DNA of 64,000 bases from an uncultured Solirubrobacteraceae bacterium. GTDB taxonomy: Bacteria; Actinomycetota; Thermoleophilia; Solirubrobacterales; Solirubrobacteraceae. This document shows, piece by piece, positions 22,732 through 36,082 of the stretch (its first letter is position 1; each line of letters opens with the position of its first letter). Below the pieces are notes generated by a model, which saw only the letters and a program-made list of their open reading frames with translations, did not search any database and was not told the origin of the DNA. The translations under genes and the position numbers were made by a program. The stretch lies in NCBI GenBank assembly GCA_963734755.1, contig CAVTIF010000001.1:244885-308884 (forward strand), given 5' to 3'.

Positions 22732-24204
22732 TAGTGCTTTGGTAGCTTGTTACTCTTGTTGTGGTGGCCAGTGGAGGGGTAGTTCGTCGAGGTCGATTGT
22801 TTGTTGGCAGGTGGTGCATTGGCCGGTCCAGCACTTGAAGATTGGCTGGAGCAGGAGGACTGCCTGGGGGAGGCTCAGGCCGGCCGCGGGTGATTTGGGT
22901 TCTGCCGCTCCAGGGTCAGGAACCCGTGAGCGGCGGTGACAAGCGCGGTGTGGTGGTACCAGCCGAGATAGGAGCGGCCCTCGTAATGGTCGAGGCCGAG
23001 TTCGCCCTTGAGCTGTTTGTAGTCCAGCTCGATCTTCCAGCGCAGGCGGGCCAGCCGCGCGAGCTGCTCGGGATCGCTGTCGGCGGGGAGGTTTGAGATC
23101 CAGTAGTCGCCCGGCTTCTCGTGGCCCTCGGGCCACTCGGCGATCAGCCACTCTTCTCGGGGTGGCCACGGCGTTCGCTTCTCGGCGCGGTTGGACGCGC
23201 GCACGCGCACGAAGCAGAAGCGCGAGGTGACCGGCTGCTCCTCTGGCCCGTCGCGGAACGGCACGGTCTGGAACTGCTCGCTGGGGAGGCCGACGATCAG
23301 CTGGGCTATCGCCACTGGCTCGCGGTCGGGACGTGGCCGGCTGCGCGGGCGGCCTGTGTCACCCTGGCGCTGCGGGACCGTGAAAGTCGTCTCGGGTGTG
23401 AACACCTTCGTCTCGGCGCCGACGGAAAGCACATACTCGAGCTCGGCGTGATGCAGGCGCTCGCGCAGCACGGTGTTATCACCGTAGGCTTGGTCGCCGA
23501 GCACCGGCGCCCTGGGCACATCCCAGCCGGCGGCACGCTCTATCAGATCCACCCCCAGCTCGGGCTTGGTCTGAAACCCAACCTCGGCGGGGATTTTCGC
23601 TCGCCGGCGACCCTCGGGGTCCTCACACCACTCCTCGGGCAGATATAGCGCCCACCCCAACGGCACCGTCCCCTGCTCGCCGACGGCGTGCACGGAGACA
23701 CCGATCTGGCAGTTGCCGATCTTTCCCAGCGTCCCGGAGTACTGGCGCTTGACCCCCGGCGAGTGCTTGCCGTCCTTGGGGAATCCCGTGTCGTCCAACA
23801 CCCACGCCTGCACGTCGATCTGCGGCGCGACCCGCTCGGCCACGGCGCGCACCACCAGCGCCGGATCCCACGTGCTCACCGCCAAGAAATTCTGCAAGCT
23901 CTCATAGTCAGCCTCGCCGCCCAGCCGCGCGACCATCGGCTCAAGCGACTTCCGCGGCCCCTGCTCAATCAAACCCCGCAGATACACCCCGCCATTCACC
24001 AGCTGCACCGGCCGGTTCACCGCCTCGCCCAACACCTCGACACCGAACACCTCCAGCCGCTCACGAACCGCCGAGGGACTATCCACCTCCGAGGAGCCAG
24101 CCACCACCACAGCCACCATCATGACCTCCCGCGTCGAACTCCTCTCCGCCAGAAGAGTTCGCCACAACCACCACAACCCCTACCAAACAGCTACCAAAGC
24201 ACTA
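22732..24204 (-). mobile_element. Complete IS701-family insertion sequence, 1473 bp
   Basis: Perfect 16-bp IRs TAGTGCTTTGGTAGCT (22732-22747 and 24189-24204); 4-bp target duplication CTAA (22728-22731 and 24205-24208). Confidence 0.95.
22875..24176 (-). CDS. IS701-family DDE transposase (true start probably downstream of 24176)
   Basis: WVLDDTGFPKDGKHSPGVKRQYSGTLGKIGNCQ, DQAYG, RWKIELDYKQLKGELGLDHYEGR. Confidence 0.93.
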   Translation of the reverse strand: MWWLWRTLLAERSSTREVMMVAVVVAGSSEVDSPSAVRERLEVFGVEVLGEAVNRPVQLVNGGVYLRGLIEQGPRKSLEPMVARLGGEADYESLQNFLAVSTWDPALVVRAVAERVAPQIDVQAWVLDDTGFPKDGKHSPGVKRQYSGTLGKIGNCQIGVSVHAVGEQGTVPLGWALYLPEEWCEDPEGRRRAKIPAEVGFQTKPELGVDLIERAAGWDVPRAPVLGDQAYGDNTVLRERLHHAELEYVLSVGAETKVFTPETTFTVPQRQGDTGRPRSRPRPDREPVAIAQLIVGLPSEQFQTVPFRDGPEEQPVTSRFCFVRVRASNRAEKRTPWPPREEWLIAEWPEGHEKPGDYWISNLPADSDPEQLARLARLRWKIELDYKQLKGELGLDHYEGRSYLGWYHHTALVTAAHGFLTLERQNPNHPRPA

Positions 24205-24259
24205 CTAAGTGGCTGCGCCCAAAGGCGAGCCGCCCCGCGAGAGGCGATCCGGCGCGCCG

Positions 24260-24430
24260 TCAGGCTGACGGTGGGCGGCGGGACTCCAGATACGCGTGGT
24301 TCTGCCGGCGCTCGCCGCGGATCTGGATCGCGACGTAGATCAGGATCACGTTGACGATCACGCCGATCCCCCCGAAGGTGACGATCAGCCCGATGGTCTT
24401 GACTACCGCTTCGTCGGCCGCGATGAGCAC
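24260..24430 (-). CDS. Small membrane protein
   Basis: One long hydrophobic helix followed by a basic tail. Confidence 0.55.
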   Translation of the reverse strand: MLIAADEAVVKTIGLIVTFGGIGVIVNVILIYVAIQIRGERRQNHAYLESRRPPSA

Positions 24431-24516
24431 GACCGAGAGCCTAGCAACGCGTCGCGTGTCGGTGTCGTAGGCTAGGGCGAACCGCCGTCGATCGCCAGAC
24501 TGACGGACAAGCACCC

Positions 24517-24605
24517 GGAGAGGTGCCGGAGCGGTTGAACGGGCGCGACTGGAAATCGCGTAGCGGGGGAAACCTCGCTCGAGGGTTCGAATCCCTCCCT
24601 CTCCG
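24517..24605 (+). tRNA. tRNA-Ser (anticodon GGA), CCA not encoded
   Basis: Acceptor stem GGAGAGG/CCTCTCC, anticodon loop CT-GGA-AA, long variable arm, GGTTCGAATCC. Confidence 0.95.
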
Positions 24606-24642
24606 TCCACCATCTCACGAAGATCGACGCAGCAAACTGGAG

Positions 24643-25104
24643 TTAGCCGGACGTCGGGAAGCGTCGTCCCTCATCGCCGGTCCACAGTCCACGGCGCTTG
24701 ATCTCTGGCACGAGATAATCGTCGTACATGCGGTAGTGGATGTCGCGGAGGCGTAGAGCCGACTCGGGCTGAGTCATGACGTTGAACATGCGCGCCTCGA
24801 CGTAGCGATCCTTGCGGGCCGTGTGGAAGACGGTGTGGCGGAGTTCGCGCAGGCTGTTGTACAGGCTGGCGTCGAGGGAATCGAGTTCGGACAGGTCGAC
24901 CCCTTTTTCTTTGCAACCCTCAATCACGGAGAACAGCAGTCCGTACCAGAGGTAGAGATAGATGCCGAACGGTTCGACCGTGATGTGCAGCAGTTGATCT
25001 TCGGGCACCGTTAATGCTTCAGCCATAGCTTCGTCGGCCCGCTCGCGCAGCAAGTCGGCACGCATCCATTGGCGGTGCAGCACGCCCAGGGTTTCGAGGC
25101 TCAA
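24643..25104 (-). CDS. Hypothetical helical protein with HEPN-like Rx4H motif
   Basis: LRELRHTVFH (R-HTVF-H) late in an all-helical 153-aa ORF. Confidence 0.55.
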   Translation of the reverse strand: MSLETLGVLHRQWMRADLLRERADEAMAEALTVPEDQLLHITVEPFGIYLYLWYGLLFSVIEGCKEKGVDLSELDSLDASLYNSLRELRHTVFHTARKDRYVEARMFNVMTQPESALRLRDIHYRMYDDYLVPEIKRRGLWTGDEGRRFPTSG

Positions 25105-25338
25105 GCCGCTGAGAGGAATGTGCGTCGCCTTTTCGGTTGCCTAGCGGGCCGGGAGATCAGAGAATCCCAGTTCAGCGGTAGTCGTGGATGAGCGGTCGAT
25201 CCCATGTGCGGTGGCATGTCCGCCGAGCGCTGTATAGACGCCGTTCCTAGCGACGCGCTCGAAGCCAGCGGCCAGTGCAAAGCCCCTGGAGGACCGAGGC
25301 GAACCGATCGTCGTGAGACACGCGGTATCTTGTCCGTG

Positions 25339-25559
25339 ATGGCTGAGCAGCTTGATCTGACGATAGTCTAGAGTCGGGTGAGGAAGGCTGGATCGTCGCA
25401 TCGATCCCCGAGGTAGCTGGGGTCTTCAGCCAGGGTCAGACGCGCGAGGAAGCGCGCGCAAACGTCATCGACGCGTTGCGGCTCATGCTCTCTCCCGAGC
25501 CCAGCGGCGCGGACGATCAACGCGAGCGTGAAGCGCTGCACCTGACGATCGCTGCATAA
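25339..25559 (+). pseudogene. hicB: HicB-family antitoxin with a 1-nt deletion near 25370
   Basis: Restored frame reads MAEQLDLTIV(Y)ESGEEGWIVASIPEVAGVFSQGQTREEARANVIDAL; absent from the ORF track. Confidence 0.8.
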
Positions 25560-25750
25560 AGCGGCGCGATTTGGAGCGCCACCTGCGCGCTCATGGGCGC
25601 CGGCAGGTCGATGAGGGCGGCAACCACGCGCGATGGGCCGGCCCGCAGGGCGAGCGATCGGTGGTTCCACGGCACCGCGAGATCGATTTCGGACTGGCGC
25701 GCAAGATCTGCCGCCAACTCCAGGTTCCGCCGCCAGGCGGCGCACGTTGA
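25556..25750 (+). pseudogene. hicA: HicA-family toxin whose start codon reads ATA
   Basis: (I)KRRDLERHLRAHG...EGGNHARW...VVPRHREIDFGLARKICRQL. Confidence 0.8.
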
Positions 25751-25810
25751 CATGCTCAACCAAAGCGCTGAGCGTGTAGCCCCCTGATGTGCTCCCAGGC
25801 AGGGTCATGT

Positions 25811-25836
25811 TTCGAGAGTCGTCCCTCCCACCCCGT
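25811..25836 (+). repeat. att-like copy A of the tRNA-Ser 3' end
   Basis: TTCGA-GAGTC-G-TCCC-TCCCACC-CCGT; last 15 nt match the tRNA 13/15. Confidence 0.75.
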
Positions 25837-25884
25837 TTTGATCGAAGTGCGAACCCTGGCCGCATCGAGGGCGAGCGGCGCTGG

Positions 25885-26337
25885 TCAGGCGGGGACGTCC
25901 ACGGCGATGTTCGTGCGGCGGGTTAGGCCGACGAGCAGGTTGATGTCGTTTGGGTCGCCGGTGATGATGGTCACCGCGCAGATGCGGCTGCGTTCCTCAG
26001 CGATCGCCACGACCTGTGCATCGGTCGTCGAGATGTCGTGGCGCGAGAGCGCAAGGGCCTCGGTCCGCAGTACGCCGGCCCGCGTGGCGGCCTCGACGGT
26101 CAGCGGCGCGTAGACATCGTGCTCTGCGCCGATGGCCTTGATCAGGCGATCGACGAGTGCATCGGAGCGCCGCTGGCCAGATCGCACCTCAGTAAGAACG
26201 GGAATCGGAATCAGGAGCGCTCCATTGATACGCAGTTTGAACAGTTCGAGATACGCAACGAGCAGATCTCGGTTGGCGGCCAGCGCGCTGACGCCGCCGC
26301 TGTCGAGCAGGAAGTCGCGGCGAGGACGGTTGGTCAC
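25885..26337 (-). CDS. PIN-domain (VapC-like) toxin
   Basis: LLDSG, VLTEV, TTDAQVVAIA, ITGD. Confidence 0.8.
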   Translation of the reverse strand: MTNRPRRDFLLDSGGVSALAANRDLLVAYLELFKLRINGALLIPIPVLTEVRSGQRRSDALVDRLIKAIGAEHDVYAPLTVEAATRAGVLRTEALALSRHDISTTDAQVVAIAEERSRICAVTIITGDPNDINLLVGLTRRTNIAVDVPA

Positions 26338-26516
26338 TCAGGCCAGGCGTCCGAGCGGCGCTGAAGCTCCGGCAGGTGCTTCGAGCCATCGGCACCCTCA
26401 GCGACGAGTTCGTCGCGCAGTTGCTGGAGGCGAGCACGCTGCGCGTCGCGGAGCTTGGGATCATCCACTGGCTGCGGCTCGACATGCGTTGTGATGGCGG
26501 CCTCCATTGAGTTCAT
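26334..26516 (-). CDS. Probable antitoxin
   Basis: 60-aa ORF coupled (GTGA overlap) upstream of the PIN gene. Confidence 0.6.
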   Translation of the reverse strand: MNSMEAAITTHVEPQPVDDPKLRDAQRARLQQLRDELVAEGADGSKHLPELQRRSDAWPE

Positions 26517-26697
26517 TGTATCCAGGGTCTCGGTAGTTGGATTGGCGTTCTTGACTGACGCACAAGGCTACGCACACAGTCACGGAGCAGCGGGTTGGCG
26601 GTCTGCTTGACGGATCGCAGCGACTGCTCGCCGCCGCGCCTCTCGCCCGACGGGCTCCATCAACTCCTCCAGTAGCCGATCCAAGGCGACGACGTGG

Positions 26698-26723
26698 TTC
26701 GCAGGTCGTCCCGGCTTCCCCGT
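26698..26723 (+). repeat. att-like copy B
   Basis: TTCGC-AGGTC-G-TCCC-N7-CCGT, preceded by a ~110-bp segment homologous to those at C and E. Confidence 0.75.
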
Positions 26724-26761
26724 GCCTCAGGTTGCGCCTTCTTAGGGAAAAGCGCGGCCTG

Positions 26762-26779
26762 CTTTACGATATAGTAAAG
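26762..26779. promoter_or_regulatory. Palindromic operator upstream of the AbrB-VapC pair
   Basis: CTTTAC-N6-GTAAAG ending 3 nt before the start. Confidence 0.55.
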
Positions 26780-26781
26780 GC

Positions 26782-27000
26782 GTGCCGCGAATCTCTAGCA
26801 AGCATCAGGTCACGCTGCCGGTGGCAGCACTAGAGCGTGCGGGGCTCAAGGACGGCGACGAGGTCGCGATCGAAGCGGAGGGAGTGGACCGTATCGTGGT
26901 TCGTCGGATCGACAAGGACGTCAAAGCTGCCTTGGGTGTGTTCGACGGCTTGTATGAGGCGGGATACCTGGAGCGATTGCGCTCCGGGGAGCGGGCGTGA
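26782..27000 (+). CDS. vapB: AbrB/MazE-family antitoxin (VapB-like)
   Basis: ISSKHQVTLPVAALERAGLKDGDEV. Confidence 0.85.
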   Translation: MPRISSKHQVTLPVAALERAGLKDGDEVAIEAEGVDRIVVRRIDKDVKAALGVFDGLYEAGYLERLRSGERA

Positions 27001-27401
27001 GCGGCTGCGTTCTCGACACCGATGTGGTGATCGCAGCGTTGGACCGCAAGGACTTCCACCATGCTGATGCGGCTGAGGCCGTGACAGCGATGATCGAGGA
27101 AGGTACGACGCTGCTGCTCTCGCTGATCAACTATGCGGAGACGCTAGTCAAGCCGGCCGAGGATGAGACTGCCATGCGGGCCGCACTGGATGCGGTGAGC
27201 GCTCTAGGAATAGAGCTGATTGCTCCCACGCCTGCTATTGCCCGCGACGCTGCACGGCACCGGGCTCTGAACATCAGCCTCGCGGACGGGTTTGCGATCG
27301 CAACAGCGCAGGCGCGGCACGCCAACCTGGCCACATTCGATCGTCGTGTTCGACGGGCTTTGCTGAAGGTGGGGGTGGAGCTTGCGTCACAGATGACTTG
27401 A
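26997..27401 (+). CDS. vapC: VapC/PIN toxin
   Basis: VLDTDVVIA, YAETL, SLADGFAIA, ATFD. Confidence 0.88.
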   Translation: MSGCVLDTDVVIAALDRKDFHHADAAEAVTAMIEEGTTLLLSLINYAETLVKPAEDETAMRAALDAVSALGIELIAPTPAIARDAARHRALNISLADGFAIATAQARHANLATFDRRVRRALLKVGVELASQMT

Positions 27402-27525
27402 GCCAACAATCTGATTGGGAGTTGCCACTGGCAATCCGGAGATCGCTTTGGCTGCTCGCTCGCGCGCCCTCCGCCCCGCAGGCTCCGTCAGAAGCCCGAG
27501 CAGCCGCTCCAGGTTGGCGCCGGGG

Positions 27526-27551
27526 TTCGCAGGTCGTCCCGATCTCCCCGT
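27526..27551 (+). repeat. att-like copy C
   Basis: TTCGC-AGGTC-G-TCCC-GATCTCC-CCGT. Confidence 0.75.
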
Positions 27552-27659
27552 TTTCGCCTGGGAGACCCTGCGCGAGTTCCGAAAGGTGCCCTACGAAAGC
27601 GTGCCCTGCTCTGGGTCGTCCATCTCTTGTGCAGCCGCCGTATCAGAGGCCAGGGATAT

Positions 27660-27685
27660 TTCGAGGGTCGTCCCGCGATCCCCGT
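27660..27685 (+). repeat. att-like copy D (134 bp after C, leaving an empty unit)
   Basis: TTCGA-GGGTC-G-TCCC-GCGATCC-CCGT. Confidence 0.75.
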
Positions 27686-27746
27686 TTTCGCCGGGGTTGA
27701 GGTCTTTGTTCGAACCGTGCCGCGACACGTGGCATATGCTTTCCGT

Positions 27747-27956
27747 GTGGCGATCAGCGAGGAACGTCGTCGGCTTGCTCGAGAAAGCGAGCAGCGGCTC
27801 GCAGCGACGGCACCCGAGACCAGTCGTGGTGCTGCGGCCTTGCTTCGGGAAGTGATGCCGCGGTTGTCGGGCGAGCGTCAACGCCAGCTCGCCGAGGAGA
27901 TGGCGCGTCGCTTCGAGTCGCGCGCCGATGCGCATTCGCGGCCTTCATCCGTCTGA
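27747..27956 (+). CDS. Small hypothetical protein
   Basis: Helical 69-aa ORF from GTG. Confidence 0.4.
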   Translation: MAISEERRRLARESEQRLAATAPETSRGAAALLREVMPRLSGERQRQLAEEMARRFESRADAHSRPSSV

Positions 27957-28226
27957 TCGTCCCTGGTCTCTCTCCCGGCGTGCTCGGTCTCTCAGCGCTG
28001 CGAGCTGGGACAGGGTCTCATCGAGCGCTGCACCGGCGTCTTGGTGGCCACTTGCGGTCAACACCCCGAGTGCCTCGGCCTCGCTGAGTATCTCGATTGC
28101 GGCGATCGTGTAGACGATCTGCACGTACGCGAGGTCAGCGCCTGCTTGCAGCAATTCTCTCGCCAGCCTCACGACCTCTTCGGTCAGGTCGCGAGCGAGC
28201 CGCATGGTCTCATCTGGATAGCTCAT
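27945..28226 (-). CDS. Small hypothetical protein
   Basis: 93-aa helical ORF with an RBS-like GAGG upstream. Confidence 0.55.
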   Translation of the reverse strand: MSYPDETMRLARDLTEEVVRLARELLQAGADLAYVQIVYTIAAIEILSEAEALGVLTASGHQDAGAALDETLSQLAALRDRARRERDQGRSDG

Positions 28227-28702
28227 CGATCAAGCATCCTCAGAGCCCCGGTTGTTTTTGATCAGCCGATCGTTTGTTTCGTGGGATTGAGTTCGACGCC
28301 GATCGGATGAGCTTAAGGCAGCCGCTCGTTTCGTCTGTGCGTCGATGTGGCGAGTTCCTGGGCTTTGTTGCTTTGGATTGCTGACGATCCGAGGGTGCCC
28401 ATCCACGCCCACTACATCCCGCGATTGCGGTCAGCAACAACGGAAGGACGGCTCGCCAAAGGGCGCGAGAAGATCTTTTTGTCGTCGGGCATGTCCAGGG
28501 CGCCTAGTCCGTAGCCGATATCGACAGGCTCGCCCACCAGCCTTATGTCAATAACCAGCTAATGCCGAATCTAATGGCAGGACTCTTGGCTAGCCCCAAC
28601 GGCTGTTGAAAACTCCGCCTCAGTCGCCACGAATGATTCTCGGCGACTGTCCTCCAGCCGGACCGCTCCTCATGGAGCTGACGGATCAGAGGCCACGGAG
28701 AT

Positions 28703-28728
28703 TTCGAGGACTTTCCCGCCATCTGCGT
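28703..28728 (+). repeat. att-like copy F (degenerate)
   Basis: TTCGA-N5-T-TCCC-N7-GCGT; the upstream ~36 bp closely match those before copy D. Confidence 0.65.
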
Positions 28729-28773
28729 GCCACTCGACATCAAAGCCGTTTGTCGCTTCACGCCTTGTCAAGC

Positions 28774-30122
28774 TCAGCGAGTGATTCTGAAGCCTATGAC
28801 GGAAGGCGGAGCGCTTCCGCCAGCGTTAGCGGCGGTTAGGCGTGCCGTGTAGTTGCCTGGTCTGAGTGGTCGCCGGCCGATGCGGCCGGTGAACGAGATC
28901 CGATCTCCTCCGCCTGGCTCTGACCGTCGCTTTAGCGAGGCGAGGGCGACAGTGCGCCGGCATCTCTTGGCGCTTGCGCGCCGAAGCGCCCGGGTGGGCG
29001 GGAGGCAGAGATGACCGCGCTTGAAGCCTGTCGTGAGGTGGCTGAGCATGACCGTGACGTCTGCCGTGGTGCTGAGGTTGAACAGGAACGCTGATCCAGA
29101 CACGGTTTTCGCGTTGGTCGCTGTCGGTGCTCGAGCGACGCGAAAGCGCCTGTGGGTCATTCGCGCACGAGAGAGTACAGGTGCAGATACCGCTGATGGT
29201 GGGGCTGCGCGCACGTGTCGGATTGCGGCACTCCGGGTGTGCTGAGGCCTGCTTCATATCGGGAGGCGTAGATCCCAGGGGGAGGCGCTGGAGCGGTGAA
29301 CGGCCCGCCCTGTTCCCAGATCGCGACCGCTCTGCCGTCCGGCCCGATGGCGACCTCCGGGGCGCCGCCTTCGGGGCCGGAGATTTCAACGCCGGGCTGC
29401 CATCCTCCGCCAGCCGTCGGGCGGATCGCGCCTCGCACGGTCGTCGGGTAATGGCGAAACACGGAGCACTCCCAAACCGCCGCAGCCGTGCCCGCCGCGT
29501 TCTCCGCTAGTCGGACGGTTTGGGCGCTTCGATCGGACCCGGAGATCACTGATGGCGCTTGCCAGGAGCCGTCGGCGCCGCGTACCGCCGTCTCGACGAC
29601 ACCACCGTCCGAGATTTCTCCAGTCGCAGCCTGGGAGCGGTGAACCCAGGCGGCTGTGGCGTCCCCCTGCGCGTCTACGGCGAGTTGGAGACTGGAGTCG
29701 AGCTCGTTCGCCACATACCGGACCCTGGTGAGGCTGATCGTCACCGGGGTCAGCCAACCGCTGCCGGCGGTCCGCAGCGAGCTTTCGATCATACGATTTT
29801 CGCCGTTGCTCGCCATCCATAGAGCAGTGGCGTTGCCATCGGCGTCGAGGGCAACGCCAGGTTCACCGACGCTTGCAGCGCTCGTGAGCGTGACCGGTGC
29901 TTGCCAGCTGGCTCCGGCAAGTCGGGATGCAGCTTTGATGCTCTCCTGGTCTTTGACGATCAGGGCGCATGGGACGCTTGAAGGTGGCCGCGGGCACGGG
30001 ACGGTTTCTGGTTCATACACGCCCCACACCGCCGCGACTTCACCCCCTGCACGCATGGCAATGCGCGGCTCGCTGTGGCAGGCCATCGCCGACTTTCGCG
30101 ATCTGGACTCCGAACTTCTCAT
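28774..30122 (-). pseudogene. Fragment of a repeat-rich secreted/surface protein, 5'-truncated and frameshifted near 29200
   Basis: Repeated WQAPV...VALDADGNATALW units; C-terminal Ig-like tail ...RPGNYTARLTAANA. Confidence 0.55.
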
Positions 30123-30161
30123 GGCGCGCGAAATCGCTAGCCTCGGCTCGGTCGTAGGCGA

Positions 30162-30599
30162 TCACGGCCGGCACGTCGGGATGTTCGAGCGTGTATTGCA
30201 GGGCGACCGCAGCCTCCACTCGCTGCATGATTGCCTGAGGACAAATTCGAAACGACCCCCTCTCTCGAACCGCGCGCGGAGTCGCGGTCGCAGCAGGAAC
30301 CCGAGATAGTCGGCCAGGATGGAGGTCGCGCCCTCATCTGCACCTGACCCGCCGTAGCCCCACCCCGCTTCCGGCGCGGCGAGGCCAAAGACCGGGGCTG
30401 GCCGGTGGCCACCTTCCAAGGCAAGCTCGACTCGCGTCGAGCGGTCGGTGCTGACCCCAACATAAGCGCCGTCGGTGGAGCGTCGCCGAGGTACGAATCG
30501 CACTCGCCATTCGCGCGCGCCGGTTTGGCTCTTCCTCACAACTCGGGTCGAACCCGCAGTATTCCCCATACGGAGAAGGTCCGTGGGTAGGGCATGCAA
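30162..30599 (-). pseudogene. Possible DUF6166-like remnant
   Basis: GWGYGGSG...SILADYLG resembles the family motif as remembered. Confidence 0.35.
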
Positions 30600-30727
30600 G
30601 CCCTGTCTCGATCAGTAGTTCGAGCAAGCGAGGTTACTTGGTGAGTCCGACGGCTCCAAGATAAGGTCGTGGTCGGGCAGGTCCGAGTCGCTCCTGACAT
30701 ATCTGCGCTCCGCAGAGTCCACAAACA

Positions 30728-31090
30728 TCACCGCGACCTCGAGACGAAAACCAGGCGGTTAGGCCAAGCTTGCGGGTCGGGCCGTGTCTCGAACGTGCCA
30801 TCCAGCGCGCGCACGATTGCGCCAAACTCGTGGTGGCGGATGCCCACCACCACCACGCAGCCGTGGTGAGATTTCCCAGCCTCCAACCACTCGTGACAGA
30901 TGCGCGGGAAATCCGCGACGTCAAACGTCACCATGATGCGCCGTTGGACGTTGGCGAGTTCCATCAGCTCCTCGTCCGGACAGCCGTCGAGGTCGCGCTC
31001 CTCGGCAACCGCAAGCACGTCGTGCTCACGTGCTCTCAGAGCTGCACCGATCCGACGGCCCGACACGTGTGCATCAAGTAGCAGACGCAA
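30728..31090 (-). CDS. DUF5615 PIN-like toxin
   Basis: MRLLLDAHVS...HDV...DEELM...MVTFDVADF. Confidence 0.82.
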   Translation of the reverse strand: MRLLLDAHVSGRRIGAALRAREHDVLAVAEERDLDGCPDEELMELANVQRRIMVTFDVADFPRICHEWLEAGKSHHGCVVVVGIRHHEFGAIVRALDGTFETRPDPQAWPNRLVFVSRSR

Positions 31091-31099
31091 ACTTGTCGT

Positions 31100-31525
31100 T
31101 TAGTCGAGTTGGATCGGGATGATGTCAGCGTCCGGGTACTCCACGCGGAGCTCCGTCAGCGGTCGCCGGTTCAGCGCGATGAAGTCGTCGATCTCCTGCG
31201 GAAAGCGCCCGTAGTAGCTGAGCGCGGTCCGCAGCTCGCGTTCGCCGAGGTCGGTCTCCGCGATTACCCGATCGAGACTCTCGCTGAAGTCCTTGTACGC
31301 CTCAATCACCTGCCACACGTCTAGGCTCGTGCCAATCAACCAGGCGCGACGATTGTAGTCATCACCGCGAAACGCAATCCCGGGAACCGTCCGAGCCTTC
31401 AGTGCCTCCTCTGCCAGCGCCTCCACTACGCTGCCCTTGCTGCGCTTCGTGCGCTTGGCCTCTGCTGTGACGAGACGATCGGTCTCGTCCGAGAGACGCA
31501 GGCTGAATGGTGCTGACTTGGCCAT
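31100..31525 (-). CDS. RHH + DUF433 antitoxin
   Basis: N-terminal SLRL RHH strand; PGIAFR...RRAWLIGTSLDVWQVI...ALSYYGRFPQEID. Confidence 0.8.
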   Translation of the reverse strand: MAKSAPFSLRLSDETDRLVTAEAKRTKRSKGSVVEALAEEALKARTVPGIAFRGDDYNRRAWLIGTSLDVWQVIEAYKDFSESLDRVIAETDLGERELRTALSYYGRFPQEIDDFIALNRRPLTELRVEYPDADIIPIQLD

Positions 31526-31776
31526 GGCTACGATTGTAGTCGATGTATTACGCGGTACTGCATGGTGCTTCCGGCCCACGGTCTGCGCGAGCATCTCAGA
31601 GTCGCCCGACCCCCGTCGGCCGCGCGCTTTCGTAGCCTCCTCGGCCGGGTACAACCGTGCTCACACTCCTTCGTCATAAGGCAGCAGAAACCAAGTCGTA
31701 GGCGATCCAGGCCCCCGGCTTAATTCGTCGTGGTGATCGCAAGATGATCATCGGCTGATATGCGATACTTAAGTGG

Positions 31777-32232
31777 ATGCTTCAGTATCCACTTGCCCGG
31801 CTGACGCCCCCGGAGCCGCCGATCGATGTGGTCTTCCACGCGCTCTCGGATGCAAATCGGCGTGCGATGATCGACCTCCTGATCGACGGGCCCGCATCGG
31901 TGAGCGAGCTCGCACGGCCGCTCGCCATCTCGCTACCGGCGGTCGTCCAGCACCTGCGCGTGCTCGAGGCGAGCGGTCTGGTGCGCTCGCACAAGACGGG
32001 GCGCGTGCGCACGTGCGAGATCGAGCCGATCGCGCTGAGCACGGTCGAGCGCTGGATCAGCGAGCGGCGCGCGACATGGGAGGCCAGGCTCGACCGGCTC
32101 GGTGCTTTTCTGGCCGAGGAGACCGATGAGGCGGAGCCCTCCACACAGTCCAAGAAGACAAGACCGAAAGGAGATCGAAATGAGCGACAGGTCAGCGACA
32201 CATTCGACGTTTGTGATCGAGCGCGACTATGA
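31777..32232 (+). CDS. ArsR family regulator
   Basis: FHALSDANRR, SLPAVVQHLRVLEASGLV, KTGRVRTC. Confidence 0.9.
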   Translation: MLQYPLARLTPPEPPIDVVFHALSDANRRAMIDLLIDGPASVSELARPLAISLPAVVQHLRVLEASGLVRSHKTGRVRTCEIEPIALSTVERWISERRATWEARLDRLGAFLAEETDEAEPSTQSKKTRPKGDRNERQVSDTFDVCDRARL

Positions 32233-32641
32233 CGCATCACCCGCACGCGTGTTCGCGGCGTGGGCGGACGTGAATGCGAAGGGCCAGTGGTTCGGGCCGG
32301 GCGGGGACCAGGGGCACGCCCTCGACTTCCGCGAGGGTGGCCGAGAGCATTTCGAGGCGGCGGTTGCGGGCGCCGTCTACTCCTACGACGCGATCTACGA
32401 AGACATCGTCCCCGACGAGCGGATCGTTTACACCTACAACATGCGTCGAGACGGCATGCGGATGTCTGTATCGGTGACAACCGTCGAGTTGCTCGTCGAT
32501 GGCGGCCAAACACACATGCGCTACACCGAGCAGGGCGTGTTCCTCGATGGCGAGGACACGCCCGAGCTGCGCGAGCACGGGACGGGGGAGATGCTCGACA
32601 AGCTCGGCGAGACGCTCACACAGGGGGCTGCGACGGTATGA
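32180..32641 (+). CDS. SRPBCC family protein
   Basis: HSTFVIERDYDASPARVFAAW, DFREGG, IVYTY. Confidence 0.9.
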   Translation: MSDRSATHSTFVIERDYDASPARVFAAWADVNAKGQWFGPGGDQGHALDFREGGREHFEAAVAGAVYSYDAIYEDIVPDERIVYTYNMRRDGMRMSVSVTTVELLVDGGQTHMRYTEQGVFLDGEDTPELREHGTGEMLDKLGETLTQGAATV

Positions 32642-34230
32642 GTGCGGACGCGAGCGCAACCGGTGCGGCGGCCAGGCTGTCGCGCCCGATCGAGCGCAGC
32701 GGCGCCGAGGGCGGGAGCGATCGCTCGCGCTGGCTCGCGCTCTACGTGCTGTGCATGGGGATGTTGATGATCGTGCTCGACGTGACGATCGTGAACGTCG
32801 CGCTGCCGTCGATCCAGGAAGACCTGCATTTCTCGACGTCGAGCCTCGCGTGGGTCGTCAACGCGTACCTGATCGCGTTCGGAGGGCTGCTGCTGCTCGC
32901 CGGACGCCTGGGTGACCTGGTGGGCCGCCGGCGCATCTTCCTTGCGGGCATCGTGCTGTTCACGAGCGCCTCGCTTCTGTGCGGCGCCGCTCAGGCCGCA
33001 TGGTGGCTCGTGGCCGCGCGGTTCGTCCAGGGCGTCGGCGGCGCGATGACCTCGGCGGTGATCCTCGGGATGATCGTGACGATGTTCCACGACGCGCGCG
33101 AGCAGGCTAAGGCGATCGGCGTGTTCGCGTTCGTCGCCTCGGCGGGCGGCTCCGTGGGCCTGATCGCGGGCGGCATCCTCACGCAGTCGCTTGACTGGCA
33201 CTGGATCTTCTTCGTGAACCTGCCGATCGGCATCGCGACGGTGCTCGCGGCGCGGCGGCTGGTCCCCGACGAGCCGGGCATGGGCCTGCGCGAGGGCGCG
33301 GACGTCCCGGGCGCTGTGCTGATCACGAGCGCGCTGATGCTCGGCGTCTACACGATCGTAGGCCCGGCGGCGAAACACGGCTGGGGCTCGCGGGAAGCGC
33401 TGCTGCTCGGCGCTGGCTCGATCGCGCTGCTCGCCGGGTTCCTGTGGCGCGAGACGCGGGCCGCGAGTCCGCTGATGCCGCTTCGGATCTTCCGCTCGCG
33501 GCCGGTTGCAGCTGCGAACGGGATCCAGATCCTGTCGGTCGCCGGGATGTTCGGGATGTTCTTCCTCGGCGCGTTGTACCTGCGGCGTGTGCTTGGCTAC
33601 GACGCGCTCGAAATCGGTCTCGCGTTCCTCCCCGTGACGATCGCCATGGGGACGCTTTCAATCCGCTATTCAGAGCGCATCCTGATGGCGCTGGGCGCGC
33701 GGCGTGCGCTGCTTTTCGGGCTCACGCTCGTGCTCGCCGGCCTCGTCGTGTTCGCGCTTACGCCTGTGCACGCGAATTACGTGAGGCAGGTCGCACCGTC
33801 AATGCTGCTGCTCGGTCTTGGTGCTGGTATCGCGTTCCCCACCCTGATGAACCTCGCGATGTCGGGCGCGACGCCGCAGGACGCAGGTCTCGCCTCGGGC
33901 CTCGTCAACACCACCGCACAGGTCGGCGGCGCACTCGGCCTGGCGGTGCTCGCGACGCTCTCGACCTCGCGCAGCAGCACGCTGATCGCGGCCGGGCATC
34001 CGCTCGCGTTGGCGCTGACCGCCGGCTACCACCTCGCGTTCTGGGTAGCCGCCGCGCTCGTCGGCTGCGCGCTAGTCGTCGTGCTCGTGGCGGTCGAGCC
34101 CGGCCGTGCGCCCGCGGCAGCGCACGACCCGGCGCATGCGCACGGCGAGAAAGACGCGCACGCCCAGGGGCCCGCGCAGCACGAGGCGAATGCGCATGGC
34201 AGCTCGTCTGTGGAAGGCGCGAACGCGTGA
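32638..34230 (+). CDS. MFS DHA2 (EmrB/QacA-like) efflux transporter
   Basis: LDVTIVNVALPSI, GRLGDLVGRRR, WHWIFFVNLPIG; about 14 TM helices. Confidence 0.93.
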   Translation: MSADASATGAAARLSRPIERSGAEGGSDRSRWLALYVLCMGMLMIVLDVTIVNVALPSIQEDLHFSTSSLAWVVNAYLIAFGGLLLLAGRLGDLVGRRRIFLAGIVLFTSASLLCGAAQAAWWLVAARFVQGVGGAMTSAVILGMIVTMFHDAREQAKAIGVFAFVASAGGSVGLIAGGILTQSLDWHWIFFVNLPIGIATVLAARRLVPDEPGMGLREGADVPGAVLITSALMLGVYTIVGPAAKHGWGSREALLLGAGSIALLAGFLWRETRAASPLMPLRIFRSRPVAAANGIQILSVAGMFGMFFLGALYLRRVLGYDALEIGLAFLPVTIAMGTLSIRYSERILMALGARRALLFGLTLVLAGLVVFALTPVHANYVRQVAPSMLLLGLGAGIAFPTLMNLAMSGATPQDAGLASGLVNTTAQVGGALGLAVLATLSTSRSSTLIAAGHPLALALTAGYHLAFWVAAALVGCALVVVLVAVEPGRAPAAAHDPAHAHGEKDAHAQGPAQHEANAHGSSSVEGANA

Positions 34231-34307
34231 GCCAACCCCGACGCGTCCAGAAGCGGAGCTCTCGATCGTCCGCTCCGAGGTCAAGCAGCGCTTCGACCAG
34301 CCGTTGG

Positions 34308-34336
34308 ATCGCACCGGCTCGTCCCAGGAACGCCGT
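34308..34336 (+). repeat. att-like copy H (degenerate)
   Basis: TCG-TCCC-N7-CCGT with the 5' part displaced by 3 nt; 142 bp before copy E. Confidence 0.5.
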
Positions 34337-34452
34337 GCGAGGGTTGAACCGCCTAAGCCGCGTTGCGGATCGCTGTGGCCGCCCGTCGTCGCGCCTCTCC
34401 TCCCACGGGCTCCAACAGCGCCTCAAGCAGCCGGTCCAGGTTCGCGGCGGGG

Positions 34453-34478
34453 CTCGCAGGTCGTCCCGATCTCTCCGT
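34453..34478 (+). repeat. att-like copy E
   Basis: CTCGC-AGGTC-G-TCCC-GATCTCT-CCGT; ends in CTCTCCGT, identical to the tRNA end. Confidence 0.75.
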
Positions 34479-34572
34479 TGAGGCTTTTCTTGCTGGGGCT
34501 TTCGGGGCTGTGCGAGGGAACGATTGCTAGTCGCTGTCATCAGCAAGGACGCGCCCGAGCGATGATGCCTGC

Positions 34573-34842
34573 TCAGTCGCGGTAGGCGCGACCGCGCGGG
34601 AGCACGCGAGTCACAGTGACGACACGGGCCTGGGTATCAAGGAGAACGAGCGCCCGCCAGTCGCCTATCCGCAGTCGCCACTCTGGCGCGCCCGTGAGCT
34701 TGCGCAGCGGTCCAGCCATGTGCGGGTCTTCGGCGAGCGCGCCTAGCGCACTCTCGACACGTTTACGGACTTGCGGGTCCAGCCGGCGCAGATCGCGCTG
34801 TGCTGTGCGGGTGAGCTGGACGCGCCACGGTGCGTCACTCAC
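34573..34842 (-). CDS. relE: RelE/ParE-family toxin
   Basis: AQRDLRRLD...KLTG...WRLRIGDWR...VLPRGRAY. Confidence 0.9.
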   Translation of the reverse strand: MSDAPWRVQLTRTAQRDLRRLDPQVRKRVESALGALAEDPHMAGPLRKLTGAPEWRLRIGDWRALVLLDTQARVVTVTRVLPRGRAYRD

Positions 34843-35075
34843 TCTGAGTCTCGCAGCGCCTCACCCAGCGACGCGGTGCGACCGGCTGCTAGGTCGGCCC
34901 TGCCCTCGGCGGCTGCCGCCTCGTCCTCGTCAGCCCACGACTCATCGTCGGCAGGGGCGTCGCGGAAGGCTGCGATTACGGGGTCCGTGCGCATATCGAG
35001 CAGGCGAAGGGCCTCGCCGGCCTCTTTCTCGGAAAGCGTCTCGATCCGCTCGCGTAGCTTCTCCTTCGCCGTCAT
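34839..35075 (-). CDS. Antitoxin partner of RelE
   Basis: Acidic 78-aa ORF coupled to relE; ...EGRADLAAGRT. Confidence 0.7.
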   Translation of the reverse strand: MTAKEKLRERIETLSEKEAGEALRLLDMRTDPVIAAFRDAPADDESWADEDEAAAAEGRADLAAGRTASLGEALRDSE

Positions 35076-35193
35076 ACCCATCCGAACAGTAGCGCGCGTC
35101 GAGCGTGGCGCGCGAGCGAGCGATGGAGTGCACGACCCAGCAGAAGCAGCGCTTCGCGCGATACCCAGCCAAGCCGACCAGAGCAAAATCACG

Positions 35194-35689
35194 GTGGTCA
35201 CTGAGCTGTAGTCCGTGAGCGCGTGGCGTGCAACTCGCGAATACGCTTCCACACAAGGTACGTGTTCGAGCTTCGGAATCGGCGCGGTAGCCAGGAGCGG
35301 CGTCAGCCCGAAACGCGCAGGCTCGTGATCGGGCGGAGTGATGCCAATCGAGTCCTGACGCCCTCGTGATCGATGAGCCGGTGGAGCCGACTACGTGGCT
35401 CCTCGTTACGGGGTGGGATTCCATGGCTGCCGAGCGTAAGATGTTGGAGAGATCATGATGCCGTCCCATCTAGATCCGTTGCCCGGCGATTTCGATGAGG
35501 AGCTCGACAGCCCGGACCCCGCTGACGTGCAGGTGGTGCAGCCGTCTCGTGAGCACCATCTGATCGTGGCAGTTCACGCTCGAGGGCGAGGATGCGGTGG
35601 CATTGCAACGGATCGCTGAGGACCAAGGCGAGGGGCCGGGCGAGGTGGTCGGGTCACTGATCCGAGCAGCTTCCGTCAAAGCCGCCTGA
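35194..35689 (+). pseudogene. Decayed BrnT-like toxin plus coupled small antitoxin-like gene
   Basis: Reframed RRLVIGRSDANRVLTLVI...WLLVTGWDS; ATGA overlap at 35455; indels in both genes. Confidence 0.5.
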
Positions 35690-35762
35690 TCGCAGGGTCC
35701 AGCGCCGAGCTGTCTTGCCGTATGCCTAAACCGTAAGGATCGTGAAGCTGGCCCGAGCAGCT

Positions 35763-35781
35763 TTCGCAGGTTATCCGGATC
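35763..35781 (+). repeat. Partial att-like copy I
   Basis: TTCGCAGGTTATCCGGATC matches copy C 16/19; lacks the CCGT end. Confidence 0.45.
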
Positions 35782-36082
35782 GGAGGTCGCGATGGCGTCG
35801 ACCAGCCGGCTCACGCCGACAGCGATGCACGCATCGATTGTGCGGGCCCCAGAGGTTGCTCTGCGTAAGCGACCCGCGGCCCGCGCCGATCGTGCCACTC
35901 GGCCGGACCTGGGCTCGCACGTCGGCCGGCACCTCGCCAAAATCGGCGTTGTCCTCGGCCAGCAACTCCAAGCCGCGAGCGATTCTCAGCTCACGTAGGA
36001 CTGCGGCGTTGACGAATGCGACTGGCTTCCACCGGACCCGGCGAGGCGTTGCTCGGTCTCATTCAGCACGGACTCGTCAAAG

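Follow-up and report, generated by a model that had tools for sequence, protein, structure and literature searches.

How can a conserved peptide recur through an array of gene cassettes without a start codon of its own? The locus that raises this question lies in a stretch of 64,000 nucleotides from an uncultured Solirubrobacteraceae bacterium (contig 1:244885-308884; 67% G+C), which we call the window, meaning the whole of the DNA that was analyzed. Behind the tRNA-Ser(gga) gene of the window stands a series of small cassettes, closed by a short repeat that continues, on the minus strand, into a mini-open reading frame (mini-ORF). The genome is in three contigs and its assembly is probably a long-read one, in which indel errors may be present. 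A preliminary description of this DNA proposed that the mini-ORFs are the C-terminal tail of a gene, most likely a recombinase, that spans the element's attachment site (attP) and is complete only in the excised circle. The reading that we favor, with a probability of roughly 80%, is that each mini-ORF represents the final ~40 codons, now detached, of a large serine recombinase (LSR) gene that spans its own attP, and that these ends persist as scars of stacked, recombinase-less cassettes. The choice of a recombinase proves apt, as the tail is in frame with an LSR both in relatives and in a circle reconstructed from contig 2 of the same genome. The proposal of an attP-spanning gene stands for the family on the same two grounds, but not for the window copies themselves: these are not completed in a circle, because no cassette encodes a recombinase and circularization joins no ORF.

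On the minus strand, the common core ACGGGGnnnnnGGGAC opens seven joints (A, B, C, D, F, and E, plus a decayed copy, X; Table 1), and in each it is followed by a startless peptide, of which there are two types. Type 1, found in B, C and E, follows the pattern T-G-x-x-G-R-P-A-N-(5)-L-D/E-R-L-L-x-x-L-x-E-P-x-G-R-x-A-R-R-R-A-x-x-A-I-R, and type 2, found in A, D and F, the pattern T-G-x-x-G-R/K-x-S-K-x-P-W-x-x-I-R-x-L-H-x-x-R-F-G. The peptides quoted in the preliminary description are all present, and its division into two types is confirmed; joint X, which it lacked, is a seventh copy; it comes immediately downstream of E, read on the minus strand, and abuts the end of an MFS transporter gene. 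The E-X pair mirrors the D-C pair, such that there are two tail-only units, the E unit being ~140 bp long. On the plus strand the core reads GGTCGTCCCnnnnnCCCCGT and lies at 25817, 26704, 27532, 27666, and 34459, with degenerate copies at ~28709 and 34317. A search of the window returned five occurrences at 0-1 mismatch, all within the array, and 12 matches at ≤3 mismatches against 5.8 expected from shuffles, no shuffle reaching 12. The antisense 3' end of tRNA-Ser(gga), ACGGAGAGGGAGGGATTCGAACCC, can be aligned with all cores. As the preliminary description had found where it looked, there is no conserved in-frame start (ATG, GTG, or TTG) among the copies; stops lie 1-16 codons upstream of most of them, the open frames span 26-61 codons, and peptide conservation starts abruptly at the attachment (att) core.

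The gap-free alignment and the many synonymous differences noted earlier also hold up. The B, C, and E peptides align without gaps across 37 codons, and 13 gap-free type 1 copies, compared by the Nei-Gojobori method (NG86), show 756, 732, and 1327 differences at codon positions 1, 2, and 3, with a ratio of nonsynonymous to synonymous rates (dN/dS) of 0.35. Past the first ten codons, which make up the att arm, dN/dS is 0.30 in the tail frame and 1.2-1.3 in the other two frames. Tail B is predicted to form one long helix from residue 11 to residue 43 (mean predicted local distance difference test score 83).

What protein these tails once ended is apparent from relatives of the source genome. A type 1 profile built from four copies was searched in 61 related genomes and in 1.8 billion representative proteins; it found type 1 in 25 of the genomes, nearly all of the source organism's own Solirubrobacteraceae-like genus (best match outside the source genome, E = 1.8e-23), and matched 107 predicted proteins among the representatives. 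The type 2 profile found its type in 19 of 41 genus genomes. The tail stands at the extreme C-terminus in 71 of the 80 strongest protein-library matches. The N-terminal portions of library matches are mostly spurious high-GC frames; a true LSR C-terminus joined in frame to the tail is found in at least ten of them, including P0017, P0018, P0036, P0040, P0051, P0062, P0074, P0083, and P0091. Relative G034 encodes an intact LSR (L009) with Resolvase, Recombinase, and Zn-ribbon domains that ends ...LLEDLMDPVGRRARRSALRAIRKAT before its stop (also given as ...NSLLEDLMDPVGRRARRSALRAIRKAT), and a second tail follows directly after the LSR's own tail in the same frame. The same three domains are present in the 651-residue L076 of G015. 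Type 2 tails, too, are fused to LSR-type ends, as ...AESGPLEPLSDTSGSIVVKPAGREGRLSKRD... in G005 and ...PARMAGAGRVSKSPW... in G026, and altogether three LSR clades carry the tail in frame. Elsewhere, homologues of the contig 2 LSR described below, intact or partial, read into a tRNA gene: into antisense tRNA-Asp in G015 (intact) and G018, and, for an LSR fragment of G004, into tRNA-Ser(gct), where it ends ...GRGSYFEQMAERAGFEPAMES at a stop. Sequence comparison establishes the tail as homologous to LSR C-termini and in frame with them.

The homologues are also linked to tRNA-type att sites, as had been anticipated: 22 of 23 type 2 matches and 19 of 41 type 1 matches lie within 15 kb 3' of an antisense tRNA-Ser-like gene. 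The likeness of the -AA end of tail E to a ClpX tag did not carry over to the family, since only ~3 of the 17 tails read end in this way (E, the second tail of G034, and L014) and others end in -RAKV, -RKAT, -RRGQS, -QPAAP, or -ARA. ARAGORN reports a "tRNA-Ala(cgc)" of 94 nt at L015 (G008 contig 4:966923-967120), on the same strand as a type 1 tail whose end it overlaps; probably the call is false or reflects a remnant that resembles a tRNA.

A whole element can be followed on contig 2 of the source genome. There, an LSR reads ...GRGSYIGRMAGATG / ...NDHDPDFRGRGSYIGRMAGATG into antisense tRNA-Asp(gtc), and tail H (KTGATGQSANLE...AIRAKV, then a stop) lies ~27 kb upstream on the same strand, in the frame ...KTGATG-QSANLEALLAGLLEHLMDPVGRQARRRAAEAIRAKV and a stop. 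Both joints of this 27-kb insert hold the identical 15 nt CGGGAGCGACGGGAC. In G026 and G033, the H-side flank (92-95% identical) abuts tRNA-Asp directly, constituting an empty site, and excision of the 27 kb in silico restores that arrangement. In the corresponding circle, whose junction would read ...GGGCGTATGG-CGGGAGCGACGGGAC-AAAGTGCGAACC..., the LSR continues in frame into tail H as ...RMAGATG followed by QSANLEALLAGLLEHLMDPVGRQARRRAAEAIRAKV and a stop. Beyond H, the flank consists of a fossil 3' end that belonged to a different LSR. Two other accounts of H were dropped on the strength of the empty-site comparison: H is not a plain orphan, as the comparison assigns it to the distal LSR, nor is it joined by programmed frameshifting to the +1-frame LSR fragment immediately upstream, which proves to be older resident flank. 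These alignments demonstrate that at least one element splits its own ORF in this manner, and that relatives have the site empty.

Some observations on contig 2 bear on the state of its genes. Two LSR genes (contig 2:~444300-446000 and 528527-530200) are broken by several frameshifts, which may be indel errors rather than marks of pseudogenes; library protein P0077 is near-identical and has a similar frame problem. The tRNA-Asp(gtc) at contig 2:528448-528526 has a 5-nt duplication (CCCGT CCCGT) at the junction of T-arm and acceptor stem when compared with G015, G026, and G033, and this shifts the stop of the LSR frame (RDSNPRPLP, then stop). The duplication may be either a genuine defect or an artifact of assembly. 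Another call for tRNA-Asp, 94 nt in length, lies at contig 1:1825300-1825393.

The geometry of the joints suggests which half-site is which. Core C, ACGGGGAGATCGGGACGACCTGCGAACCCC, has its ACGG and GGGA in register with antisense tRNA-Ser(gga). The T-loop motif CGAAC has its first base at index 22 in each of the cores A, B, C, D, F, E, and G; in tRNA-Ser(gga) and tRNA-Ser(gct), read antisense, it begins at index 17, 5 nt nearer the joint than in the cores. Among large serine integrases, the zinc-ribbon domain binds an outer motif that is 5 bp nearer the center in attB than in attP (PMC11722253). Because the offset matches this rule, we take the core with its G-R-P-A-N codons for a P-type half-site and the tRNA 3' end for a B-type one. 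The end of the LSR body (GGTTCG within G-S-Y) may provide an inverted copy of the motif, which would produce a ~50-bp dyad centered near the joint; the exact position of the crossover is likewise inferred. Other identities of the repeat and its peptides were considered and rejected. An integron attC site does not fit, as E does not retain the inverted repeat (GGCTGCTCG / CGAGCAGCC) of copy C. The likeness of the core to a tRNA 3' end is real but reflects the att arm, and there is no T-arm fold that would make the core tRNA-like or tmRNA-like. Nor did any profile support reading the GRP.. peptides as N-termini of IS5/DUF772-type transposases or as ribbon-helix-helix antitoxins.

These features can be brought together in a scheme in which several LSR clades of the lineage would take tRNA 3' ends (Ser, Asp) as attB. 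The attP would be placed across the end of the LSR ORF, with the last codons of the body (...GRGSY..MAG / ...SI..KLAG) acting as P' arm and the codons T-G-x-x-G-R-P-A-N (ACGGGGnnnnnGGGACGACCTGCGAAC) as P arm, a copy of the tRNA arm with 5 extra base pairs, after which ~27 more codons would encode one long helix. Integration would sever the ORF, such that the LSR body runs into the antisense tRNA and gains a short substitute ending, while the P arm and tail stay behind at the far joint, a mini-ORF bounded by stops and with no start. Accretion at one tRNA, combined with the loss of LSR genes or with the mobilization in trans of units that lack one, could then give rise to an array in which every unit closes with core and tail. 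The tails would have diverged within LSR genes that were still expressed, and on that account could still be aligned as peptides; given the fixed frame across the core, a tail could even be taken up again by an incoming LSR. By analogy with the mycobacteriophage repressors that the preliminary description invoked, the exchange of endings may serve as a switch.

Table 1. Joints, cassettes, and related features of the array, with two further tail copies of the same genome. Positions are those of the window unless a contig is named.
Feature	Position	Strand	Description
tRNA-Ser(gga)	24517..24605	+	Array anchor, attB-type arm (T-arm and acceptor-stem 3' strand); ARAGORN and Rfam
Joint A	25756..25836	-	Core and type 2 tail TGWEGRLSKHDPAWEHIRGLHAQRFG, stop; E = 4.8e-16 to type 2 profile
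Cassette 1	25837-26723		PIN-like toxin and small partner
Joint B	26580..26723	-	Core and type 1 tail TGKPGRPANHVVALDRLLEELMEPVGREARRRAVAAIRQADRQPAAP, stop; closes cassette 1; E = 1.7e-26
Cassette 2	26724-27551		MazE/AbrB antitoxin and PIN toxin
Joint C	27387..27551	-	Core and type 1 tail; closes cassette 2; E = 3.3e-25
Joint D	27552..27685	-	Tail-only unit, 134 bp, type 2 tail TGIAGRPSKYPWPLIRRLH...; E = 1.6e-17
Joint F	28543..28728 (about)	-	Degenerate core and type 2 tail TQMAGKSSKSPWPLIRQLHEERSGW...; E = 3.5e-16
Joint X	34231..34336	-	Decayed type 1 tail TAFLGRAGAIQRLVEALLDLGADDRELR...; closes 5.6-kb unit with ArsR-SRPBCC-MFS operon
Joint E	34353..34478	-	Tail-only unit, type 1 tail TERSGRPASPAANLDRLLEALLEPVGGEARRRAATAIRNAA, stop; E = 1.3e-24
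Copy G	contig 2:711226-711384		0.7 kb behind tRNA-Ser(gct), same genome
Copy H	contig 2:555808-555927		Same genome

How does the array of the window relate to such elements? The cargo between its joints is mainly toxin-antitoxin pairs. Cassettes 1 and 2 have homologues in 41 of 101 genus genomes and are never adjacent there; directly behind tRNA-Ser(gga) stands cassette 1 in G003 and cassette 2 in G004. Homology of cassette 1 with its copies in G116 (92%) and G075 stops exactly at ...TCCCCGT, i.e., at the core. Such comparisons demonstrate that the cassettes are modular, with a boundary at the core, and LSRs of the kind described above may have placed them. No LSR gene is present in the window, the closest ones of this genome being outside it, and circularizing the seven window units one by one in silico yields no more than short open stretches upstream of the tail, with neither a recombinase body nor a plausible start. 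The window tails are, then, orphans: relics of elements that lost their LSR, or P arms of units mobilized in trans.

Several neighboring features merit mention in their own right. In cassette 1, the gene for the PIN-like toxin (minus strand, 25885-26337) shares its frame with tail A, from which only a TGA stop and 16 codons separate it. Just upstream of the MazE/AbrB-type antitoxin gene is a palindrome, CTTTACGATATAGTAAAG (26762-26779), kept in the G004 homologue as TTTACGATATGGTAAAGG, which is probably the operator of the toxin-antitoxin promoter. At ~35700-35790 on the minus strand, a weak resemblance to the tails (..DPDNLRKLLGPA..) overlaps a 156-residue minus-strand ORF, and repeat family D4 ties 35751-35772 to tails C and E; this may be chance, or the last scar at the end of the array. 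An ORF for an IS701-type transposase (433 residues, minus strand, 22875-24176) lies directly upstream of tRNA-Ser(gga), and because it adjoins the gene, the left flank is also non-native. From tRNA-Ser(gga) to tRNA-Arg(acg), the distance in the window is 27 kb (24605-51416). The corresponding distance in G004, from tRNA-Ser(gga) to tRNA-Arg, is ~1.3 kb, with a VapBC pair alone between them. Provided that the tRNA-Arg genes of the window and G004 correspond, much of 24605-51416 may be accreted DNA.

The evidence for detached LSR ends has to be weighed against other origins of the tails. They could be host-owned, forming a repeated chromosomal target like the REP13E12 repeat used by the mycobacterial prophage phiRv1, with an LSR gaining its tail by reading into the target. 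That most copies are orphans with no LSR nearby would suit such a history, and an LSR could gain an adjoining tail on insertion, as the tandem tails of G034 illustrate. On contig 2, however, the tail sits at the end of a 27-kb insert, far from its LSR, and is absent from the empty site of G026 and G033; identity between the source genome (G000) and G015 across the joint drops from 82% in the flank to 64% in the tail and to none beyond; the arm of the tails is spaced in the P-type rather than the B-type manner; and three separate LSR clades have the tail in frame. With these points in hand, we regard host ownership as improbable. A little less probable again is that conservation acts on DNA or RNA, in which case the open frame would be incidental and the ~110 nt would serve as a structured RNA or as an extended site for recombination or regulation. 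The first 28 nt of the repeat are indeed the most conserved at the DNA level, where they act as att arm, and the window copies have no start codon. Past the arm, though, third codon positions vary at roughly double the frequency of first or second ones; the low dN/dS, far from 1, is confined to the tail frame; LSR att sites, at ~40-50 bp, are shorter than the conserved stretch (PMC11722253). Structure finds no support either, as RNAalifold on the 13 aligned tails gave -5 kcal/mol with a covariation term of 0.02, and tRNA alone reached the Rfam threshold in 24000-36000. The preliminary description named a dN/dS close to 1, or an explanation by RNA or DNA structure, as outcomes that would refute it, and neither was seen. 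Least credible of all, and in our judgment very unlikely, is that each mini-ORF is an independent small gene for a regulator or antitoxin with a non-canonical start. Frames of 26-61 codons, protein-level conservation, and a setting amid toxin-antitoxin modules all speak for a small gene. Against it stand the lack of a conserved start, the stops directly upstream, the onset of conservation at the att core, the absence of any significant Pfam match for six tail peptides, and the finding that LSRs end, in frame, in this very sequence.

Derivation from attP-spanning LSR genes, for its part, must contend with a number of contrary observations. No LSR gene lies within 1.5 kb of tRNA-Ser(gga) in 30 genus genomes, and there is none in the window either. 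The cassette 2 homologue of G004, between tRNA-Ser and tRNA-Arg, has no tail, so not all units are tail-bearing. The left (P') arms of the joints failed to yield one consensus, because the spacing of GGTTCG falls into two classes (-19/-21 vs -31). Among the source genome's LSR-less copies alone, dN/dS is higher, at 0.33-0.93, which fits relaxed constraint on copies that may now be drifting. The LSR on contig 2 carries frameshifts, reflecting either real decay or long-read assembly errors. Finally, canonical LSRs do not recombine attP with attL or attR, and because they are directional in this way, an array would need relaxed specificity or multi-unit circles.

A more ambitious possibility, which we put forward tentatively and think doubtful as it stands, is that soil Actinomycetota of the Solirubrobacteraceae type possess an integron-like platform for gene capture built on LSRs, with entry at tRNA 3' ends, cassettes carrying P arms, and an exchangeable C-terminal helix. 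Small recombinase-less cassettes, mostly of toxin-antitoxin or defense type, would each bear a one-sided P arm. The C-terminus of the LSR would report whether the gene resides in a circle, at a naive tRNA, or against an older cassette, and could thereby bias directionality.

Should the derivation from LSR ends be correct, some bacterial serine integrases use tRNA 3' ends as attB, with the T-loop as outer recognition motif, and integration, by swapping ~40 C-terminal residues, would amount to a built-in sensor of integration state. The scars would delimit accreted islands to the base, and recombinase-less cassette arrays could form around a serine enzyme. Startless C-terminal mini-ORFs beside tRNA genes may serve as a cheap island marker in metagenome-assembled genomes, and natural attP/attB pairs (tRNA-Ser, tRNA-Asp), with an optional tail, offer testable material for engineering integrase directionality. 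A literature search found no account of a serine integrase whose own ORF contains attP. To our knowledge, the swap of an ORF end has so far been known only for archaeal SSV-type tyrosine integrases and, with another gene, for mycobacteriophage immunity.

Comparison with known systems brings out what is familiar here and what is not. The fuselloviral tyrosine recombinase gene of the SSV1 type reportedly has attP within it and becomes split when the virus integrates at a tRNA gene. The likeness is close: there, too, an ORF spans attP, integration at a tRNA gene partitions it, and a fragment stays at the far joint. The SSV1-type enzyme, however, is a tyrosine recombinase of archaea, whereas ours are serine enzymes of bacteria, and the SSV split disrupts the catalytic protein, whereas here only a C-terminal helix is removed and the enzyme body is left intact. 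In the mycobacteriophages BPs, Brujita, and Charlie, attP is said to lie inside the repressor gene and immunity to depend on integration. Integration likewise alters the C-terminus of a phage protein there, with attP within the 3' end of the gene; the gene is a repressor and the enzyme a tyrosine integrase, in contrast to the LSR gene here, and the mycobacteriophage system removes an ssrA-like degradation tag, for which the -AA/-LAA ending of our tails, not being conserved, provides no counterpart.

As for the array, the SCC/SCCmec islands (staphylococcal cassette chromosome) at staphylococcal rlmH are moved by Ccr large serine recombinases and include ccr-less pseudo-SCC units in tandem. As in the window, units are stacked at a fixed site and bounded by repeats, and many are recombinase-less and presumed to have moved in trans; unlike the window, the target is protein-coding rather than a tRNA gene, the ccr genes do not span the site, and the units are far larger. 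Integrons and clusters of attC sites lacking integron-integrases (CALINs) also consist of small, repeat-closed cassettes, most of which lack a recombinase, and chromosomal integrons typically carry toxin-antitoxin cargo. They differ in that no folded attC-type site exists here, the repeat being a piece of coding sequence, and in that the linked recombinases are serine enzymes rather than IntI tyrosine recombinases, although no search was made for intI. Accretion at tRNA genes is itself known in Actinomycetota, for actinomycete integrative and conjugative elements (PMC9513070).

The nearest enzymes are the integrases of phiC31, Bxb1, Listeria A118/LI, and SPbeta, which have the same Resolvase-Recombinase-Zn ribbon set as the tail-linked enzymes. 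Systems of the phiC31 type also use short dyad-like sites in which the outer motif of the element-side arm lies 5 bp further out, as here. In contrast to those systems, attB here is the 3' end of a tRNA gene, and the recombinase ORF has attP within its own 3' end, such that integration would exchange ~40 C-terminal residues. Strictly directional integrases of the phiC31 type are, moreover, not expected to give tandem recombinase-less arrays such as those seen here. Judged by domain content and the geometry of their sites, the tail-linked enzymes are ordinary LSRs; it is the tRNA target, the attP within the ORF, and the swapped tails with their arrays that are unusual.

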